Source: a virus
Taxonomy: Duplodnaviria; Heunggongvirae; Uroviricota; Caudoviricetes
Length of the DNA stretch: 14,178 bases
Reading direction: 5' to 3' (one strand)
Virus record (IMG/VR): IMGVR_UViG_2529293265_000015
Of this stretch, positions 3,446 through 14,178 are shown in pieces; position 1 is the stretch's first letter; every line of letters starts with the position of its first letter. A program made the translations under genes and the position numbers. Below the pieces are notes generated by a model. The model did no database searches and was not told the DNA's origin. It saw nothing but the letters and a program-made list of their open reading frames with translations.

Positions 3446-3474
3446 CCCGCGTCTCCCAGCGCGGGCTTTTTTTG
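3446..3474 (+). terminator. Plus-strand intrinsic terminator-like hairpin with no plus-strand gene upstream
   Basis: GCCCGCG-tctcccag-CGCGGGC followed by TTTTTTT on the plus strand. On the minus strand the same hairpin is not followed by a U-run. Confidence 0.5.
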
Positions 3475-3476
3475 CC

Positions 3477-3780
3477 CACAAGAAAACCCCTCCGGAGAGG
3501 GGCTAAAGCCGCGTATCTGTATCATCATGCACATGGTGCCGGGTGCCTCCCGGTGAGTTCAGCCCGGTGCCACTAAACCCGCGTCATTCTCGTTTTGATA
3601 ATCAGAGATTATACCGTCACCAGTCGCCCCTCCGCTCAGGGGGATTCACCATGCGAAATTTTTTTAACAAATGCCCAGTCTGACAGGCAACTGTCAACTT
3701 ACTGAATTGTGAGCAACATAGCATTTAACGGGGAACCTGTTTTCTGCAGTAAAAAGGCCCACCGGAGCGGATGGGCCTGG
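3477..3780. repeat. Non-coding tandem module, copy 1 (~304 bp)
   Basis: Aligns with 3965..4216 at roughly 75-80% identity by eye. Shared blocks: cccctccggagaggg hairpin, gccgggtgcctcccggtga, cccctccgc.cagggggattcaccatgc, ttttaacaaa, caactgtcaac, ctgaattgtgag, and a terminal hairpin plus U-run on the minus strand (3751..3777). No ORF of 60 aa or more on the sense strand. Confidence 0.75.
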
Positions 3781-3964
3781 AAGGATAGCGGTCATGTGAT
3801 GCCGGTTTCCCGGTAACTCAGCACCGGTATCTGAGTCAACGTTTTCTCTACTGGGTCATTTCCGATACGCCCTGCCTGCTGACAGGCTTTCATCACATCT
3901 GAAAATATAGCACCCTGACTGATACTGTAGTACCTAAGGTTCCAGAAACTGTGATGTATCCGGC

Positions 3965-4216
3965 ACAGAAAAGCCCCTCCGGAGAGGGCTGGAGAGTGGC
4001 GCTATGTGCCATTGCATGATGCCGGGTGCCTCCCGGTGAATTCAGTACCAGCACCTGAATCCGCGATTATCCCATATACCTACTCGCTGATTGCCCCTCC
4101 GCACAGGGGGATTCACCATGCCAGTTTCTTTTAACAAACTCCCCGCAAAACAGACAACTGTCAACCGTCTGAATTGTGAGACATTTAAAAAAAAGGCCCG
4201 CAAAAGCGAGCCAGGG
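3965..4216. repeat. Non-coding tandem module, copy 2 (~252 bp)
   Basis: Second diverged copy of the 3477..3780 module. Minus-strand terminator GGCUCGC-uuuu-GCGGGCC followed by U8 (plus 4187..4212) lies immediately downstream of the tRNA cluster. Confidence 0.75.
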
Positions 4217-4226
4217 AAAATAAGTG

Positions 4227-4303
4227 TGGCGCGTTGTACTGGATTCGAACCAGTGACCGATTGCTTAGAAGGCAATTGCTCTGTCCGGCTGAGCTAACAA
4301 CGC
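4227..4303 (-). tRNA. tRNA-Arg (anticodon UCU)
   Basis: Hand-folded cloverleaf on the minus strand: GCGTTGT acceptor pairs with ACAACGC, anticodon loop CTTCTAA, T-loop TTCGAAT, 3' GCCA. Confidence 0.8.
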
Positions 4304-4316
4304 ATGATGCAGATAA

Positions 4317-4393
4317 TGGACCGCCATCGGGGACTTGAACCCCGCGCAGCCAGCTTCGAAGGCTGGCGCTCTTTCCTGATGAGCTAATGGCGG
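4317..4393 (-). tRNA. tRNA-Arg (anticodon UCG)
   Basis: Hand-folded cloverleaf: acceptor CCGCCAT/ATGGCGG, anticodon loop CTTCGAA, T-arm CGGGG-TTCAAGT-CCCCG, 3' UCCA. Unusual C1-G72 pair and U73 discriminator. Confidence 0.7.
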
Positions 4394-4400
4394 TATGTGA

Positions 4401-4476
4401 TGGTGGCCCTTGCTGGATTTGAACCAGCGACCTGGCGATTATGAGTCGCTCGCTCTCACCACTGAGCTAAAGGGCC
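4401..4476 (-). tRNA. tRNA-Ile2/Met (anticodon CAU), ileX/ileZ-like
   Basis: GGCCCTTTAGCTCAGTGGT...CTCATAAT...GGTTCAAATCC...AAGGGCCACCA closely resembles E. coli ileX. Same Ile-Arg-Arg order as the tRNA cluster of Stx phages. Confidence 0.8.
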
Positions 4477-4516: not shown

Positions 4517-5575
4517 TCATCCGTTCTGGCTGACTAAATCCTGTACTTCCCGAACCGTCTGCTCAAAACGTTCAGTCTCCAGCTCAACGCCAATTGCACG
4601 ACGCCCGAGCGCCAGTGCCGCTTTCACTGTCGAACCCAACCCCATGAAAAAATCTGCAATCAGGTCACCCGGACGACTGCTAGCGCTGATTATCTGCTGC
4701 AGCATTTCTGCCGGTTTTTCGCACGGATGTTTCCCGGGATAGAACTGCACCGGTTTATGCGTCCACACATCGGTATACGGCACCTGCACCGTCACGCCAA
4801 AATACCGCCGCAGATGTTTATATTCACTCAGCAGCTCCGCATACTGCCGGTTCAGTGAGGTATACGTATCCACCAGCTGGTGGTGGAGCTTTTCCAGTTC
4901 ACCACGCCGATGCTTCTCTTCTGCCACCCGGGCAAACAGCGCCTGTAATTTCAGATAATCGCTTTCATTCGGCAACTGCCACTGACCGGCACTGAACCAG
5001 TGCGACACCATGTTTTTCTTTCCTGTGGCATCTGCAATCTGTTTTGCCGTTATCCCCAGGGCAGCTCGCGCATCACGAAAGTAAGAAATCAGCGGGGCCA
5101 TCACATGCTGTTTCAGTGCACTGCCCTTCGCCGCATACCCGGCATCTTTCGGACGATACGGCCCCTGATAATGTTCCGCGAACAGAATGCGCTCTGTGGC
5201 GGGGAAATACGCCCGCAGGCTTTCCTTGTTGCATCCGTTCCAGCGTCCGGACGGCTTCGCCCAGATAATATGGTTCAGCACACTGAAGCGTTCACGCATC
5301 ATGATTTCGATATCAGATGCCAGGCGATGACCACAGAACAGGTAAAGACTTCCGGCAGGTTTCAGCACCCGCCAGAACTGCGCCAGACACTGGTCCAGCC
5401 ACTTCAGGTAATCATCGTCGCCCTTCCACTGGTTATCCCAGCCCTCAGGCTTCACTTTAAAGTACGGCGGGTCCGTGACTATCAGGTCAACAGAATTTTC
5501 GGGTAACGACCGGATAAATTCCAGGCAGTCGGCGTTGATTAACTCACAACTGGATATTTTTACAGTATTAAGCAT
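4517..5575 (-). CDS. DNA methyltransferase, beta-class (N6-adenine or N4-cytosine), solitary
   Basis: 352-aa ORF with the N-terminal catalytic motif LIVTDPPYF and a C-terminal AdoMet motif DFFMGLGST; this motif order defines beta-class amino-MTases. No restriction endonuclease gene is adjacent. Target specificity is unknown. Confidence 0.8.
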   Translation of the reverse strand: MLNTVKISSCELINADCLEFIRSLPENSVDLIVTDPPYFKVKPEGWDNQWKGDDDYLKWLDQCLAQFWRVLKPAGSLYLFCGHRLASDIEIMMRERFSVLNHIIWAKPSGRWNGCNKESLRAYFPATERILFAEHYQGPYRPKDAGYAAKGSALKQHVMAPLISYFRDARAALGITAKQIADATGKKNMVSHWFSAGQWQLPNESDYLKLQALFARVAEEKHRRGELEKLHHQLVDTYTSLNRQYAELLSEYKHLRRYFGVTVQVPYTDVWTHKPVQFYPGKHPCEKPAEMLQQIISASSRPGDLIADFFMGLGSTVKAALALGRRAIGVELETERFEQTVREVQDLVSQNG

Positions 5576-7346: not shown

Positions 7347-8405
7347 TTATGCTTTCCACTTCAGAACACCCGAATTTCTCGCGTGCATTAAAAAACGAAT
7401 CAGCAACAACAGCTGACTGCCGTGTTTCTCTTCAAAATCTTTTACTCCGGCATGTAGTTCGTTACGGCATTTACGGCATAACGGAATAACAAACAAATCA
7501 TCAGCCTTTGTTCCCATCCCTCCCAGTCCATGACCAATGATGTGATGCGGATCATCTGCCTGATTGCCACACGTCATGCATTTCTGCGTTTTTACCCAGC
7601 GCGTGTATACAGGCATCTCTTCCCGTTGTGATTTCTGGCGCTGGAGATACTGAGCCGGTGACTCCGGATCAACGGCAATGCTGACCACCGTCTTTTCCTG
7701 TGGTGGGTTCTGTTGCTGGTGGACGTGAGGCAGTAACGCAATATTTTTTGTGCGCTGCTTCAGTATGCTGGTGGCTGTCTGCTCTCCCGGTATGATGTCG
7801 CTTTCACTGTACACAGAGCGAATTTTTTCCGCACGCAACCCCAGCGAACGACGTAATACCGCTTCCGGTAGCGCGTCCGCCACCTGATTGCGGACCGCCC
7901 ACCAGGATAATTCAGCCAGAGATAATTCACGCTCCTGCGTACCGCTTATTGCGTGACCGATGACGTCAATCATCCATGCTGACAGGTTTTGATGAGCAAG
8001 TTGCTCGAGTGATTCGGATGTCTGGTCACGCAGCTGGTTGTCGCAGTGCCAGCACAACACCATTGCGCCGGTACCATAACGGTGAATGACGGTTTCGCTG
8101 TGATGATAATCGCCGTGTGGCCACTGGCAGGATTTAATATGGCGCAACAGCCAGTCAGACAATGCACCAGCACCACCAGCAGCACGAATCACCCGTGCGT
8201 TACTGAAAAACGGCAGCAATGTTTTGTCTTCCACCAGCGGCTGGCGAGCGGCAGGAACGACCCCGGACGGCAGATTACGCATGCTTTTTGGTTCCGGCTC
8301 CACCAGTATTCTGCCGTTATGGAATGCTGACATTGATTCACGGCCTGGCTTAACGATAACCAGACCGAGTTCCGGTACCAGAACAGGTCGAAGTAATACC
8401 CGCAC
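7347..8405 (-). CDS. DUF968 / YdfU-like prophage protein (352 aa)
   Basis: GTG start preceded by GGAGG. C-terminal Cys/His-rich segment CMTCGNQADDPHHIIGHGLGG...PLCRKCRNELH (HNH-like). Same position as Qin ydfU, upstream of the Q region. Confidence 0.6.
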   Translation of the reverse strand: MRVLLRPVLVPELGLVIVKPGRESMSAFHNGRILVEPEPKSMRNLPSGVVPAARQPLVEDKTLLPFFSNARVIRAAGGAGALSDWLLRHIKSCQWPHGDYHHSETVIHRYGTGAMVLCWHCDNQLRDQTSESLEQLAHQNLSAWMIDVIGHAISGTQERELSLAELSWWAVRNQVADALPEAVLRRSLGLRAEKIRSVYSESDIIPGEQTATSILKQRTKNIALLPHVHQQQNPPQEKTVVSIAVDPESPAQYLQRQKSQREEMPVYTRWVKTQKCMTCGNQADDPHHIIGHGLGGMGTKADDLFVIPLCRKCRNELHAGVKDFEEKHGSQLLLLIRFLMHARNSGVLKWKA

Positions 8406-9232: not shown

Positions 9233-9388
9233 TTACTCCTCAGGTTCGTAAGCTGTGAAGACAGCGACCTCCGTCTGGCCGGTTCGAATTCGTACCTCGC
9301 AGAGGTCTTTCCTCGTTACCAGTGCCGTCACTATGACGGTTAAACAGATGACGATCAGGGCGATTAACATCGCCTTTTGCTGCTTCAT
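9233..9388 (-). CDS. hokD: Hok-family type I toxin, HokD/RelF-like (51 aa)
   Basis: MKQQKAMLIALIVICLTVIVTALVTRKDLCEVRIRTGQTEVAVFTAYEPEE is a single-TM Hok-family peptide; by recall it matches E. coli HokD (RelF). SD AAGGAG lies 7 nt upstream of the internal ATG at 9386..9388. The track ORF 9233..9445 is an in-frame upstream extension. Confidence 0.85.
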   Translation of the reverse strand: MKQQKAMLIALIVICLTVIVTALVTRKDLCEVRIRTGQTEVAVFTAYEPEE

Positions 9389-9679
9389 AGCCTGCTTCTC
9401 CTTGCCTTTCGGCACGTAAGAGGCTAACCTAGATTTGCCGTTCATAGATTGAGCCTCAGATTAATGTTAAGCGTCTTGCCGGACGCGTAATGTTAACTGG
9501 GGCTTTTCTCTATCTGCCTTTTGGTGTTCATGCCTGAGACAGATAGCCTCAAGCACCCGCTGCAATTCTACTTAACTCTCCTTTTCCCGCAAACCGTTTT
9601 TATCCCCAGCGGCAAATCGAATACACCACCAGCGCCACCGCCATCGCAATTCCTACCGTTGTTAATGCTTCAGGCCAGG

Positions 9680-10024
9680 TCATCGTAAAATATCCTCCAC
9701 GCTTATCAGTCCGTTCCGCTCCAGATAACTCATCGCCTTATCCGGTAATTTGCAGTCTGGCTTCGCTTTTCTCAGTTGCCAGGTTAACTGCTTTACCAGC
9801 ATGGTTAACTCATCGACCAGACGCTGATATCCCACTGGTTTGTATTCATGCAATTTACCGGCTGGCTCTGCTGCCAGCGATACCAGTGCGATTTCCAGAA
9901 CAGCAATATCCATCTTATATGTGCGGATGATGTCATGGTCGATTGTGCCCGGTATGCACAGTCTCTGTGCTTCAATAGTCTCCTCTGCGTGAGCTATTAA
10001 CTGCTCTCTGGTAAAAGTCGTCAT
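9680..10024 (-). CDS. Hypothetical protein (114 aa), paralog of the upstream 55-aa protein
   Basis: Start ATG overlaps the upstream stop (ATGA); SD AAGGGG. N-terminal half aligns with the 55-aa protein (MTTxTxE... and IALxSLxAEP). Confidence 0.55.
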
Positions 10025-10188
10025 GCCGTAGCCCCTTCTTGATATTTTTCAAACCAGAACACAACCGGCTCTGCTTCCAGCGATGCCAGCGCAATCCGTG
10101 CCAGTTCCATTTGTTCACCACGGGTAAGCCCGTTTTCAAGCGGGTTTTTAATGAACAATTCAATACGTTCTTTGGTAATAGTGGTCAT
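10021..10188 (-). CDS. Hypothetical small protein (55 aa), not in the ORF track
   Basis: Hand translation: [55 protein letters not shown]. Strong SD AAGGAG 8 nt upstream; stop overlaps the start of the 114-aa gene. Confidence 0.55.
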
Positions 10189-10198
10189 GTGTTACTCC

Positions 10199-10397
10199 TT
10201 AACCCGCAGTGCTTTCAACTGATGAGGGGAACAAAATCTTTTCATCAAACCCTGCATTCATATCATGAACAGCAACACACCAATCCATCGACGAACGATT
10301 ATCAAGAGCCTCCATGATTTCATCCATGCGGCGTAGGTCATACAGGTAAATGCTTTTATCGCCAATGGTGTAAAAGCCAATTTTTTTCGGTGATGGA
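10199..10397 (-). pseudogene. 3' fragment of an unknown gene, 5' end removed by the IS600 insertion
   Basis: The reading frame stays open upstream into the IS600 terminus (the track ORF's start codon at 10429 is inside IS600). Ends ...FDEKILFPSSVESTAG. Confidence 0.45.
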
Positions 10398-10440
10398 TGA
10401 GGTGTACTGGCAATAGCGGACACTACCATTTGTTCTTTTT

Positions 10441-11259
10441 TTAAGCAGCCATCTGATGATATTTTTCCCTGAAGGCTGCCGGGGAGATATTCCCCAGACG
10501 AGAGTGACGACGCTGACGATTGTAGAAAATCTCAATGTATTCCCGTATTACTGAGATGGCTTCATCCCGGTTATTAAAACGATAGTGGCTCAGGCTCTCA
10601 TTTTTCAGCGTTCCCCAGAAGCTTTCCATCGGAGCGTTGTCGTAACAGTTACCTTTACGCGACATTGATGTTTTCAGACCAGACTGCTCCTGTATGACCC
10701 GGTAATCGTATGCGCAGTACTGTGAACCTCGATCAGAGTGGTGGATTAGCCCGGCAGGTGGGCGCTGGCTCCTGAGCGCCATAAACAGGGCTTTACCTGT
10801 CAGCTCTTTTGTCATGCGCTCTCCCATGGCGTAGCCGACAATTTCGCACGTATAAACATCTTTGATGCCAGCGAGGTACAACCATCCCTCCTGTGTGGCA
10901 ACATACGTCAGGTCCGCCACCCAGACCTGATTTGGTGCTGTAGGAGCGAACGTCTGGTTCAGCAGATTTGGCGCAACTGGCAGATTGTGGTTCGAGTTCG
11001 TAGTCGCTCTGAACTTGCGTTTCTGCTTACAGTGTAGCCTTAGCTCCTTACGAAGACGTGCCAGTCGGTCACGACCAACGATGATGCCATTCTCTGCCAG
11101 CTCCGTCTGGAGCCGCCGGGTTCCATATGTTTCGCGAGTGCGGATATGTGCCACCTTAATCTCCAGTTTTAGCCGCTCATCACTTTGTTTTCTGTCTGAG
11201 GGTTCATGCTGTACCCAGTTGTAATAACCGCTCCTGGATACACCAAATACCTGACACAT
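10441..11259 (-). CDS. IS600 OrfB (transposase catalytic domain), expressed as OrfAB by -1 frameshift
   Basis: 272-aa frame with the integrase/DDE-type core (...HSDRGSQYCAYDY...NAPMESFWGTLKNE...). The orfB frame runs upstream to overlap the orfA 3' end. Confidence 0.85.
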   Translation of the reverse strand: MCQVFGVSRSGYYNWVQHEPSDRKQSDERLKLEIKVAHIRTRETYGTRRLQTELAENGIIVGRDRLARLRKELRLHCKQKRKFRATTNSNHNLPVAPNLLNQTFAPTAPNQVWVADLTYVATQEGWLYLAGIKDVYTCEIVGYAMGERMTKELTGKALFMALRSQRPPAGLIHHSDRGSQYCAYDYRVIQEQSGLKTSMSRKGNCYDNAPMESFWGTLKNESLSHYRFNNRDEAISVIREYIEIFYNRQRRHSRLGNISPAAFREKYHQMAA

Positions 11260-11294
11260 CGCTTCAATGGGAAATTGTTGTCGCCATTGTTCGA

Positions 11295-11597
11295 TTAACG
11301 CGTATTTTTCAGCGACTCCTGTGCAAAATACGCTGTTGCTTTTTTTAATATATCTCGCTCAAGGCGAGCTTCATTTAACGCCTTACGCAGTTGCAGAATT
11401 TCAGATTCCAGTTCAGCCACCGTGCGGGAACCAGGAGTACCGAGCCCTTTTCTGGCGGCGGTAACCCATTGTCCTAAAGTGCCTTCAGGAAGAGATAATC
11501 GGGAAGCGCCTTCACTGATCGAAAGTTGATTTTCAGGAACCGTTCTGACAGCTTCGGCTTTGAACTCTTTAGAGTAACGTTGGGTTTTTCTGCTCAT
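11295..11597 (-). CDS. IS600 OrfA (100 aa)
   Basis: MSRKTQRYSKEFKAEAVRTV...LERDILKKATAYFAQESLKNTR, recognised from memory as IS600 ORF1. Confidence 0.85.
   Translation of the reverse strand: MSRKTQRYSKEFKAEAVRTVPENQLSISEGASRLSLPEGTLGQWVTAARKGLGTPGSRTVAELESEILQLRKALNEARLERDILKKATAYFAQESLKNTR
11339..11346 (-). other. Programmed -1 ribosomal frameshift site of IS600
   Basis: AAAAAAAG on the minus strand, at the end of orfA where the orfB frame overlaps. Confidence 0.6.
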
Positions 11598-11661
11598 TAT
11601 TAGCTCCTTCTGATGCCATTCTATTTCAGGAAGGAGTGTCCGTTAAACTCAGGCTACCTCA

Positions 11662-12051
11662 AAAATTAAAGGGCAGGTTGTTGAACTTGTACGTCTGAGC
11701 GGTCGCGAGACGTTGCGGCAACTGGAAGCCAAGACAGGTGCGACAAGATATCTGATGAGTGTTCTCGCCAGAGAGCTGGTTGCCAGTGGCGATGTATACA
11801 ACTCTGGTTACGGGTTATTCCCGTCTGAACAGGCGCGTAAGGACTGGCAAAACGCCCGCAAAAAACTCTCAAGGGCAAATCTGAAGAAACCATCTGTGGT
11901 TGATCCTGACCTTATCTGGTCATTACCAGACGGAGAAATACGCCGCTACGACAGGCGTCAAAACATAATCTGTAGCGAGTGCCGGAAGAGCGAAGCTATG
12001 CAGCGTGTACTGGCTTTCTATCAGGGTAATTTTCAGAAGGTGCTGTTGTGA
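11662..12051 (+). pseudogene. Unknown gene, 5'-truncated by IS600 (at least 129 codons remain)
   Basis: The plus-strand frame is open from the IS600 boundary (SKIKGQVVELVRLSGRETLRQLEAKTGATRYLMSV...QGNFQKVLL) to the stop at 12049..12051. The track places a TTG start at 11713; the first in-frame ATG is at 11755. Confidence 0.45.
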
Positions 12052-12178
12052 GCCAAATTAACAATCGGAACTTCGTGAAGAGAAAGCATAATCCAAAATC
12101 TGAATAATTAAGTTCAGCACTGTGGTGATGCTGCCAACTTACTGATTTAGTGTATGATGGTGTTTTTGAGGTGCTCCA

Positions 12179-12454
12179 GTGGCTTCTGTTTCTATCAGCT
12201 GTCCCTCCTGTTCAGCTACTGACGGGGTGGTGCGTAACAGCAAAAGCACTGCCGGACATCAGCGCTATCTCTGCTCTCACTGCCGTAAAACATGGCAACT
12301 GCAGTTCACTTACACCGCTTCTCAACCCGGTACGCACCAGAAAATCATTGATATGGCCATGAATGGCGTTGGATGCCGGGCAACTGCACGCATTATGGGC
12401 GTTGGCCTCAACACGATTTTACGTCACTTAAAAAACTCAGGCCGCAGTCGGTAA
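12179..12454 (+). CDS. insA: IS1 InsA (91 aa)
   Basis: [20 protein letters not shown]...[12 protein letters not shown] with a GTG start. Confidence 0.85.
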
Positions 12455-12876
12455 CCTCGCGCATACAGCCGGGCAGTGACGTCATCGTCTGCGCGGAAAT
12501 GGACGAACAGTGGGGCTATGTCGGGGCTAAATCGCGCCAGCGCTGGCTGTTTTACGCGTATGACAGTCTCCGGAAGACGGTTGTTGCGCACGTATTCGGT
12601 GAACGCACTATGGCGACGCTGGGGCGTCTTATGAGCCTGCTGTCACCCTTTGACGTGGTGATATGGATGACGGATGGCTGGCCGCTGTATGAATCCCGCC
12701 TGAAGGGAAAGCTGCACGTAATCAGCAAGCGATATACGCAGCGAATTGAGCGGCATAACCTGAATCTGAGGCAGCACCTGGCACGGCTGGGACGGAAGTC
12801 GCTGTCGTTCTCAAAATCGGTGGAGCTGCATGACAAAGTCATCGGGCATTATCTGAACATAAAACACTATCAATAA
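12373..12876 (+). CDS. insB: IS1 InsB frame (expressed as InsAB' by -1 frameshift)
   Basis: 167-aa frame ...[21 protein letters not shown]...[18 protein letters not shown]; the A6C slippery motif ttaaaaaactc is present. Confidence 0.85.
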
Positions 12877-12899
12877 GTTGGAGTCATTACCTACATCGG

Positions 12900-13671
12900 G
12901 GTGATGCTGCCAACTTACTGATTTAGTGTATGATGGTGTTTTTGAGGTGCTCCAGTGGCTTCTGTTTCTATCAGCTGTCCCTCCTGTTCAGCTACGGACG
13001 GGGTGGGTGCGTAACAGACAAAAGCACTGCCGGACATCAGCGCTATCTCTGCTCTCACTGACCGTAAAACATGGCAACTGCGGTTCACTTACACCGCTTC
13101 TCAACCCGGTACGCACCAGAAAATCATTGATATGGCCATGAATGGCGTTGGATGCCGGGCAACTGCACGCATTATGGGCGTTGGCCTCAACACGTATTTT
13201 ACGTCACTTAAAAACTACAGGCCGCAGTCGGTAACCTCGCGCATACAGCCGGGCAGTGACGTCATCGTCTGCGCGGAAATGGACGAACAGTGGGGCTATG
13301 TCGGGGCTAAATCGCGCCAGCGCTGGCTGTTTTACGCGTATGACAGTCTCCGGAAGACGGTTGTTGCGCACGTATTCGGTGAACGCACTATGGCGACGCT
13401 GGGGCGTCTTATGAGCCTGCTGTCACCCTTTGACGTGGTGATATGGATGACGGATGGCTGGCCGCTGTATGAATCCCGCCTGAAGGGAAAGCTGCACGTA
13501 ATCAGCAAGCGATATACGCAGCGAATTGAGCGGCATAACCTGAATCTGAGGCAGCACCTGGCACGGCTGGGACGGAAGTCGCTGTCGTTCTCAAAATCGG
13601 TGGAGCTGCATGACAAAGTCATCGGGCATTATCTGAACATAAAACACTATCAATAAGTTGGAGTCATTACC
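12900..13671 (+). mobile_element. IS1, degenerate 772-bp copy, in tandem with the first (8-bp spacer tacatcgg)
   Basis: Same terminal sequences as copy 1, but several indels and substitutions in the insA region and at the frameshift window. Confidence 0.85.
13132..13656 (+). pseudogene. Truncated InsA'-InsB fusion frame in degenerate IS1 copy 2
   Basis: Indels (cacgtattttacg...ttaaaaactacagg versus cacgattttacg...ttaaaaaactcagg) put the insA 3' part and insB in one DNA frame, while the insA 5' part carries frameshifts. Confidence 0.6.
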
Positions 13672-13714
13672 CGGCACTGTAAATAAAATTTAATCCTTAA
13701 CTGGAGGTATATCT

Positions 13715-13927
13715 ATGTCAAATACACAGAAAATTATTAACACTGAAAAATATAACGAGTGGGTGAAAAAATTCTCTGAGCAGATTTTTAAAATTACTGG
13801 CGACGAGAATGTGGCAAAAAATGAATTAGAACCGTGGACACCTGAAGGAAACGCACCAAATTATTGCTGGTGGGAGGTTGATCCGGTTGATGCTGCAAAT
13901 GAAGCCATGAGTTACCACAACGATTAA
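13715..13927 (+). CDS. Hypothetical acidic small protein (70 aa)
   Basis: ATG preceded by SD ctGGAGGtatatct. AT-rich; sequence MSNTQKIINTEKYNEWVKKFSEQIF...EPWTPEGNAPNYCWWEVDPVDAANEAMSYHND. Family not recognised. Confidence 0.5.
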   Translation: MSNTQKIINTEKYNEWVKKFSEQIFKITGDENVAKNELEPWTPEGNAPNYCWWEVDPVDAANEAMSYHND

Positions 13928-13959
13928 TGTCGGGAGGCCGCCCGAAAGGGCGGTAAGAA

Positions 13960-14178
13960 ATGACTACATTATTCAGAAAAGAATATCCGCAAAAAAGTAG
14001 GGCGACAGAATTTTTGTTTCTCATTCTGTTTATCGTATTGATGATACCGATATCCCCTCTAATTTTTGTCTGGGCAATCGGGAAAATAATTGAGCCAGTT
14101 ACTGAATTGTATACCGACGTTGTATGGGCGTCGTTCAACACACTGCACAATAAAATTAATCCGTATAAGGAAAACTGA
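13960..14178 (+). CDS. Hypothetical small membrane protein (72 aa, one predicted TM helix)
   Basis: ATG at 13960 with a weak SD (taagaa). Hydrophobic core FLFLILFIVLMIPISPLIFVWAIG; stop at the window end. A GC-rich hairpin with GAAA loop (ggccgccc-gaaa-gggcgg) separates it from the upstream gene. Confidence 0.45.
   Translation: MTTLFRKEYPQKSRATEFLFLILFIVLMIPISPLIFVWAIGKIIEPVTELYTDVVWASFNTLHNKINPYKEN

Follow-up and report, generated by a model that had tools for sequence, protein, structure and literature searches.

Two overlapping small genes upstream of hokD in a lambdoid prophage: a probable filling of a mosaic accessory slot by recombination

The window analyzed here is a 14,178-nucleotide stretch of viral DNA (Caudoviricetes; IMG/VR record IMGVR_UViG_2529293265_000015). 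Directly upstream of hokD, it contains two small overlapping genes, designated A and B, that are followed by a tiny open reading frame (ORF). A preliminary description of the sequence presented A and B as a paralogous pair that might serve in addiction, exclusion or anti-defence. The two genes, their modules and the tiny ORF are located as follows.

Gene A, 10188..10021, minus strand: 55 amino acids (aa); stand-alone N-module with a foreign tail; WP_000207997.1, 'Eaa protein' in UniRef.
A-type N-module (A codons 1-41), 10066..10188, minus strand: starts with MTTITKE; the 5' end of genes that are much longer, such as the 289-aa DUF551-type gene, has the identical sequence.
A codons 42-55 and stop codon, 10021..10065, minus strand: the 14 codons that end the gene for a 121-aa HNH endonuclease, its ATGA overlap with B included.
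Gene B, 10024..9680, minus strand: 114 aa; minimal member of an N-module/C-module 'bracket' family; WP_000206826.1.
B-type N-module (B residues 1-54), 9863..10024, minus strand: starts with MTTFTREQ; predicted helical hairpin, from an AlphaFold2 (AF2) model and the alignment to A.
C-module (B residues 71-114), 9683..9814, minus strand: conserved unit with three predicted helices, from a 150-sequence alignment and the AF2 model.
Tiny ORF, 9600..9683, minus strand: 27 hydrophobic codons; its ATG overlaps the stop codon of B (ATGA).

The stop codon of A overlaps the start codon of B in an ATGA sequence, and each gene has its own Shine-Dalgarno sequence (AAGGAG, 7 nt 5' of the ATG of A; GAAGGGG, ~8 nt 5' of the start of B), in agreement with the earlier description of translationally coupled genes with strong ribosome-binding sites. 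The 55-aa gene had been reported as absent from the ORF track supplied with the sequence. It is missing only there, and RefSeq holds A as well as B under the label 'hypothetical protein'. The exact sequences of A and of B are each carried by at least 1000 contigs, and their cluster names include Shigella sonnei, among others. In RefSeq, A and B reside in a Rac-like prophage adjoining ompW, in the order racR-ydaS-ydaT-replication genes-DUF977-...-DUF4014-87-aa gene-A-B-hokD-...-holin. The sequenced phage vB_EcoS-689R5 exhibits the identical gene order, and A is named 'EaA protein' there; the arrangement is also present in phage PhiR49_2. A consensus scan of the coding strand from the upstream gene to hokD revealed no sigma-70-type promoter-like site, which is weak evidence, and a lone weak terminator-like hairpin that sits inside A. 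A scan of genome contigs returned a single locus, an E. coli-phage-like contig of 1780 nt (L088) that contains B at 100% identity and is binned in a Segatella copri metagenome-assembled genome. This assignment is probably a mis-binning, and the one locus is uninformative on taxonomic range.

The N-terminal regions of A and B are related. BLASTP aligns the two proteins over 54 columns with 33% identity and an E value of 1e-5 for the single comparison. Moreover, four PHROG families (phrog_60, phrog_660, phrog_3323 and phrog_5117) are matched independently by A and by B. The matches of A include phrog_3323 (1.3e-19), phrog_60 (4.3e-18) and phrog_660 (3.9e-10), and those of B include phrog_660 (8.2e-43), phrog_5117 (3.3e-9) and phrog_60 (1.5e-7). 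These comparisons confirm that the similarity exceeds chance and that the common N-terminal domain in the preliminary description reflects a real paralogy.

Neither protein yields a match in Pfam or NCBIfam. PADLOC-DB v2 at E ≤ 0.1 likewise gives none for either of them, nor for the tiny ORF and four proteins encoded nearby. The earlier view that A and B do not resemble RelB or RelE thus agrees with Pfam, NCBIfam and PADLOC. PF13935 (Ead_Ea22) is matched by neither A nor B even at E ≤ 1, and DUF551 (PF04448) is present in neither. Searches of Protein Data Bank sequences with single sequences and with a profile produced chance matches only, besides a weak match between the long helix of the B C-module and designed antiparallel coiled coils. 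Literature searches on DUF551, DUF550, eaA of P22, exo-xis/Ea22, and the nin region and anti-defence yielded nothing on the N-module, A or B.

The modules of A and B belong to a larger family with a bracket-like architecture. The N-module begins with MTT[IF]TKE, continues through a variable middle and closes with a 10-residue motif followed by V or I. It occurs in at least nine subtypes, of which A and B carry two different ones. The C-module follows the pattern ELTMLVKQL...KPDCKLPD...LISVEDxLR and constitutes the C-terminal end of the protein in every inspected match. The family centre is optional and highly variable and can be DUF551, DUF550/dATP-dGTP pyrophosphohydrolase, an Ea22-type coiled coil, 'Eaa' sequences or one of many others; the commonest centre contains nothing recognized by Pfam. 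B consists of an N-module, a 16-residue linker and a C-module. With both modules present, it belongs to the 'Eaa-like' bracket family, and by its sequence it is the minimal form of that family. A holds the N-module alone and thus represents a fragment rather than a full family member.

The modules are combined freely within the family. One C-terminal part is found behind at least six N-module subtypes, and the A-type N-module heads HNH-tail, DUF551-like, DUF550-like, Ea22-like coiled-coil and Eaa-type C-terminal parts. At 80 IMG/VR loci, the proteins headed by the 41-residue module of A span 53-411 aa; 40 of these proteins display a DUF551-like motif, 21 are the product of gene A itself, and 3 end in the C-module. 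Several contigs contain two or three N-module genes within 3 kb. N-module-only truncated ORFs with many unrelated tails are abundant and are classified as partial or as pseudogenes by the Prokaryotic Genome Annotation Pipeline (PGAP). PGAP also names many fragments of the A cluster 'DUF551 domain-containing protein, partial', a label that derives from their full-length relatives.

An exhaustive profile search over 1.84 billion representatives (clusters at 50% identity; E ≤ 1e-3) identified 1122 clusters of the family. Most of the top matches cover the profile from end to end, in proteins of 92-395 aa. Among 137 family representatives, Pfam recognizes dATP-dGTP_PPHyd in three and Ead_Ea22 (PF13935) in the variable centre of three others. 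Two further representatives have weak single-member Pfam matches, and the rest have no Pfam domain. Family genes are located after the replication genes, as in this window and in locus L005, and in the exo-xis region (L006), where they adjoin Ead/Ea22-like genes. The family is abundant in prophages of E. coli, Shigella and Salmonella, including Stx phages, and nearly all of it lacks a Pfam annotation. It adjoins the Ea22/exo-xis genes, which influence the lysis-lysogeny decision, and knowledge of what the two terminal modules do would annotate many hypothetical proteins together. One 379-389-aa protein with the same N- and C-modules (P0241/P0406) is named 'dTDP-6-deoxy-L-hexose 3-O-methyltransferase' in some NCBI records. 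Its 389-aa cluster representative (P0241) has no Pfam match, and the name is likely an annotation artefact.

The N-module end motif is conserved as a protein sequence. Across 51 distinct DNA variants from at least five subtypes, the amino acids of the 10-residue motif are nearly invariant, and their codons vary. Alanine is encoded by GCG, GCT and GCA (23, 10 and 17 times, respectively), arginine by CGG, CGA and CGT, isoleucine by ATT and ATC, glutamate by GAA and GAG, and proline by all four of its codons. The combination of fixed residues and varying synonymous codons indicates that the motif is constrained as protein, beyond a mere recombination linker. In the C-module, an alignment of 150 sequences reveals near-invariant columns at E72, L73, M75, K78, L80, L84, L93, A97, M98, Y100, L101, L106, L113 and R114.

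An AF2 model of B was built on a 150-sequence alignment. The predicted structure is all-α, with a mean predicted local distance difference test (pLDDT) score of 85.4 and a predicted template modelling (pTM) score of 0.45. The N-module is modelled as a helical hairpin (residues 6-22 and 30-51), and the C-module as a long helix (residues 66-87) followed by two short helices (residues 93-103 and 109-113). Block-mean pLDDT values are 89-93 at residues 71-110 and 68 over the last four residues. The pTM of 0.45 suggests that the two modules have no fixed mutual orientation. Structure searches with the model returned generic helical hairpins only, plus gp45 of phage N15, the sole significant BFVD match. 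A DNA-binding helix-turn-helix was considered for the C-module of B and was dropped, given no profile or structural match in support.

Gene A is composed of two blocks of different origin. By blastn mapping, IMG/VR locus L037 matches the left block (window 10397..10064) at 99.7% identity. This block carries the 87-aa gene together with codons 1-41/42 of A and, in the intergenic stretch, the ribosome-binding site. At L037, the start codon of A opens a 289-aa gene that runs from an A-type N-module to DUF551; next in order are the tiny ORF, in a 25-aa version, and hok. The right block (window 10079..9599), in which the end of A is followed by B and the tiny ORF, matches the HNH-B-tiny ORF block of EH2252 (L002) at 98.3% identity. 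In a three-way alignment of the DNA, the GTT codon for V42, GTTGTGTTCTGG, marks the onset of identity to the HNH-B locus of EH2252. A residues 31-54 match phrog_2118, an HNH endonuclease family. A comparison of the C-terminal ends of the HNH protein and A places the crossover in the shared E/D-P-V codons (GAGCCGGTT vs GACCCAGTT). Read from these alignments, A is an in-frame joint between the 5' end of a long N-module gene and the last 14 codons of an HNH gene. The locus shows, at the resolution of single bases, how a microhomology of three codons allows in-frame recombination to make a new small ORF from the 5' end of one gene and the 3' end of another.

Further exchanges are observed at the same module ends. 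A 29-nt direct repeat is located at the N-module ends of B and A (9864-9892 and 10067-10095), with 86% identity and a spacing of 203 nt. Natural deletions between the N-module copies have generated 101-aa fusions (P0151, P0152 and locus L085) and a 63-aa form (P0237), and all of these are consistent with the repeat. In a MAFFT alignment with the A-B read-through fusion P0121, all A homologues are aligned to the module copy of B. Programmed frameshifting from A to B was considered and rejected; the fused forms P0121, P0122 and P0144 have indels or out-of-frame read-through and come from few short assemblies, and mutation or assembly error fits them better. The C-terminal region of the HNH protein (ALVRMGLVEMKSDPV...; L002 4342-4707) weakly resembles the N-module end, with ~60% nucleotide identity just 5' of the crossover, and the 3' end of the HNH gene may derive from an older exchange with the N-module family.

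Of 5426 complete E. coli genomes surveyed for A and B, 571 contain B and the tiny ORF in complete form and 324 contain the A-B pair, so that ~43% of the B-carrying genomes lack A. Conservation of A and B as a unit across genomes, on which the preliminary description had made their pairing depend, was thus not observed. Among the non-A contexts inspected or listed out of the 247 remaining genomes, the 121-aa HNH endonuclease gene always precedes B with the same ATGA overlap, as exemplified by EH2252 and by ArgO145, an Stx2a phage. The identity among A-B copies is at least 98% throughout, which indicates a single recent recombinant lineage that spread and not an anciently conserved operon. In the IMG/VR survey of the slot, A-B-tiny ORF-hok is found at 21 loci, and a lone 289-aa DUF551-type gene at ~8 loci, with hok inside the fetched flank in five; L085 contains the 101-aa A/B fusion in place of the two genes. 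The mosaic joints lie at the N-module end, at the C-module start and 3' of the tiny ORF.

The most probable interpretation, to which we assign a probability of roughly three in four, is that A-B is one alternative filling of a mosaic accessory slot, produced by recombination in a shuffled family, and not a two-component system. It builds on four results that are established on sequence grounds, namely how the modules are arranged, where the breakpoints lie, that the pairing is not obligate and that the N-module motif is constrained at the protein level. The slot would lie in Rac/Qin-like lambdoid prophages, in the early-right stretch of accessory genes that separates the replication genes from Q, with the order 87-aa gene, variable filling, tiny membrane ORF and hok/sok. 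A phage with a long gene (A-type N-module ... DUF551) would have recombined with a phage containing an HNH endonuclease-B-tiny ORF block to generate A, with the crossover retaining only the N-module of the long gene, in frame with the last 14 HNH codons. The long gene would then have provided the strong ribosome-binding site of A, and the HNH gene the ATGA overlap that couples A to B. B is predicted to be a small all-α early protein with a coiled-coil-like helix that may act through protein-protein contacts and, by analogy with the Ea22/exo-xis class, may modulate phage development without being essential. A would be a neutral by-product, with competition for the binding partner of the N-module as its greatest conceivable effect.

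Several points weigh against this interpretation. The Ea22-like modulator role is an analogy drawn from the genomic neighbourhood and the common modules. Nearly all copies retain an intact A ORF (clusters of 65, 29 and 20 members, compared with a few frameshifted singletons), and at least two other N-module subtypes (P0110 and P0120) bear the same HNH tail. The mini-gene of an N-module and an HNH tail could be retained rather than accidental. The divergence among A-B copies, at least 98% identical, is too low for a selection test on A.

The closest relatives of A and B, within phrog_660, phrog_60 and phrog_3323, are the 'Eaa'/'EaA' proteins of P22-like and other enterobacterial prophages, in which both proteins have direct sequence membership. 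In particular, 197-199-aa 'Eaa' proteins (P0210) combine an N-module as in A with a C-module as in B, and N15 gp45 has both modules in common with B. A differs from the 'Eaa' proteins in that it consists of their first 41 residues and a foreign tail, and B lacks their central region; the names carry no function. A and B are also comparable to the lambda Ea22/PF13935 family by analogy, as early, non-essential lambdoid accessory proteins with a mosaic build. In Ead/Ea22-like proteins, a short segment at the N-terminus is combined with a helical or coiled-coil part, and the C-terminal domains, DUF551 among them, are interchangeable; Ea22/exo-xis proteins have been described as mosaic, oligomeric and pro-lysogenic (PMC10834534). 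The N-module is fused straight to Ea22-like coiled-coil sequence in P0074-P0078 and P0096 (...ALASLEAAEKRIAELEAKL). Lambda Ea22 itself has 182 aa, a solved α/β C-terminal domain and a demonstrated pro-lysogenic effect, whereas B has 114 aa, is predicted to be all-α, contains another conserved C-module and has no PF13935 match. DUF551 (PF04448) proteins, including YfdS of CPS-53, are related through the left parent of A, the 289-aa gene that ends in a DUF551-like domain, but neither A nor B contains DUF551.

An alternative that we consider unlikely is that A is a selected stand-alone N-module, which would hetero-oligomerize with N-module proteins (B, prophage paralogues and those of incoming lambdoid phages) and regulate or poison them. 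The protein-level constraint on the N-module motif is consistent with such a role, as are the frequent occurrence of two to three N-module genes on a phage contig and the existence of N-module plus HNH-tail mini-genes in three N-module subtypes (A, P0110 and P0120). The A ORF is also intact in most copies, and its strong ribosome-binding site is kept. However, the abundant truncated N-module ORFs with unrelated tails, annotated as partial or as pseudogenes by PGAP, are expected from frequent neutral rearrangement, and the intactness of A has little weight because its copies are at least 98% identical. The oligomerization of the N-module is itself hypothetical.

The terminal sequences could alternatively serve mainly as DNA-level 'linker' homologies for the exchange of central cassettes among lambdoid phages, with little function of the terminal modules themselves. 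The mosaic joints fall exactly at the N-module end, at the C-module start and 3' of the tiny ORF, the repeated ends of the modules have undergone deletions between them, and the window is rich in Chi sites (11 vs 0.53 expected, one of them in the tiny ORF). This explanation appears doubtful given the free synonymous codons and fixed amino acids of the N-module end motif and the conserved C-module positions, which compose the hydrophobic core of a confidently predicted helical unit. The fixed motif residues and the conserved C-module core point to selection on the proteins, which is compatible with a linker role as well.

A rather improbable proposal is that A is kept as a dominant-negative regulator or inter-phage interference factor, which would bind the N-modules of B, of enzymes and of DUF551 proteins from co-resident or superinfecting lambdoid phages. 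If it were true, the N-/C-module bracket would constitute a docking code common to an entire class of phage proteins expressed early.

The tiny ORF is followed by a type I toxin-antitoxin locus.

hokD/sok type I cassette, 9233..9558, minus strand: hokD coding sequence at 9388..9233 and sok/mok leader at 9383-9558; Pfam HOK_GEF 3e-23, Rfam sok 112 bits.

The tiny ORF has no annotation in the RefSeq records examined and may encode a real single-pass membrane peptide. It occurs in five variants, all of which are intact. The 25-aa version at L037 has ~71% nucleotide identity, and its differing codons comprise 7 synonymous and 10 hydrophobic-for-hydrophobic changes. The tiny ORF is also found directly 3' of DUF551 genes (H121-H129) and moves with the right-hand block as a separate module. 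In some deletion variants (P0036 and P0114), an N-module is joined to the C-terminal end of the tiny ORF. The homology between the window and EH2252 stops right after the stop codon of the tiny ORF, and at the following position EH2252 contains ParD/ParE on the opposite strand instead of hok/sok. The hokD/sok cassette is cargo of the next slot and lies outside the A-B unit.

The preliminary description had placed A and B where Qin-like prophages carry relBE, and this assignment holds, with relB-relE abutting hokD in the Qin prophage of E. coli K-12 (L087 3540-4180). The K-12 locus has only the hokD coding region and its ribosome-binding site in common with the window. It lacks the sok/mok leader, the tiny ORF and A-B, and relBE occupies the place of the leader. 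Because the window hokD has the full sok/mok leader and the K-12 homology starts only from the hokD ribosome-binding site, the K-12 copy looks rearranged. A-B and relBE are alike in that each consists of two small genes, joined by an overlap of stop and start codons, immediately upstream of hokD. They differ in that A-B has no sequence or profile similarity to RelBE, the pair is not conserved as a unit and its upstream gene is chimeric. Moreover, A and B are paralogues, which distinguishes them from classical toxin-antitoxin partners.

It is highly improbable that A-B is a toxin-antitoxin, addiction or exclusion pair in which A neutralizes B via the shared N-terminal domain at a locus for such cargo: although the genes are small and overlapping with the smaller first, the next slot holds toxin-antitoxin systems (hok/sok here, ParDE in EH2252 and relBE in K-12) and the predicted helical hairpin common to both proteins could heterodimerize, ~43% of the B genomes lack A and have the unrelated HNH gene upstream in the sampled contexts, the N-module of A is present, without B, on dozens of further proteins, A is demonstrably chimeric and inherited its coupling to B from the HNH gene, no toxin, antitoxin or defence model was matched in Pfam, NCBIfam or PADLOC, no promoter-like site dedicated to A-B was found in the consensus scan (weak evidence), and A/B fusions and deletions are common in nature. 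The initial observation of a paralogous, coupled pair upstream of hokD is accordingly retained, and its interpretation as an addiction, exclusion or anti-defence unit is not supported, given the genome counts (571 vs 324), the HNH gene upstream of B otherwise, the promiscuous N-module and the chimeric A. A-B represents ordinary lambdoid-phage mosaicism, with both genes already in RefSeq and no sign of a new addiction or defence mechanism.

Upstream of A, the prophage is interrupted by an insertion sequence (IS).

87-aa upstream gene, 3' remnant, 10199..10397, minus strand: phrog_1714 5.3e-37; WP_000224233.1 if intact; cut by the IS.
IS3-family element, 10398..11660, minus strand: orfA at 11597..11295 and orfB at 11259..10441; Pfam HTH_Tnp_1, rve and HTH_21.

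The intact 264-nt version of the 87-aa gene is present in E7476 and L037, and the homology to intact loci ends at window 10397. The matching RefSeq genome annotates an IS3-like IS600-family transposase, and the flanking homology resumes at 11661. The insertion severs A-B from the early-right operon, and, judging from this arrangement, the expression of A and B here is probably poor or silent. Two copies of an IS1 transposase are located beyond the IS3-family element (~12150-13660) and have disrupted the region there, and the prophage segments 11661-12123 and 13674-14178 differ in order from the intact prophage of strain E7476. The names of A and B and the IS load suggest that the window derives from a defective prophage of Shigella or E. 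coli.

The rest of the window contains DUF968/YdfU, RusA, antiterminator Q, a DNA methylase, three tRNAs, two STnc100 small RNAs, a SASA-type esterase and a holin, and by its gene content reads as the Q-proximal part of a lambdoid prophage. The 11 exact Chi sites (GCTGGTGG) are distributed over both strands of the 14.2 kb, as exemplified by 9626-9633, 8173-8238, 7715-7774 and 4870-4883; their expected number was obtained from dinucleotide-preserving shuffles, of which 0/200 reached 11. The two STnc100 copies (161 and 124 bits) and the three tRNA genes (minus strand; 3474-3683, 3961-4150 and 4230-4476) lie between the Q/methylase genes and the SASA-esterase gene. This late-promoter-proximal position is the usual cargo site of Stx-like phages.

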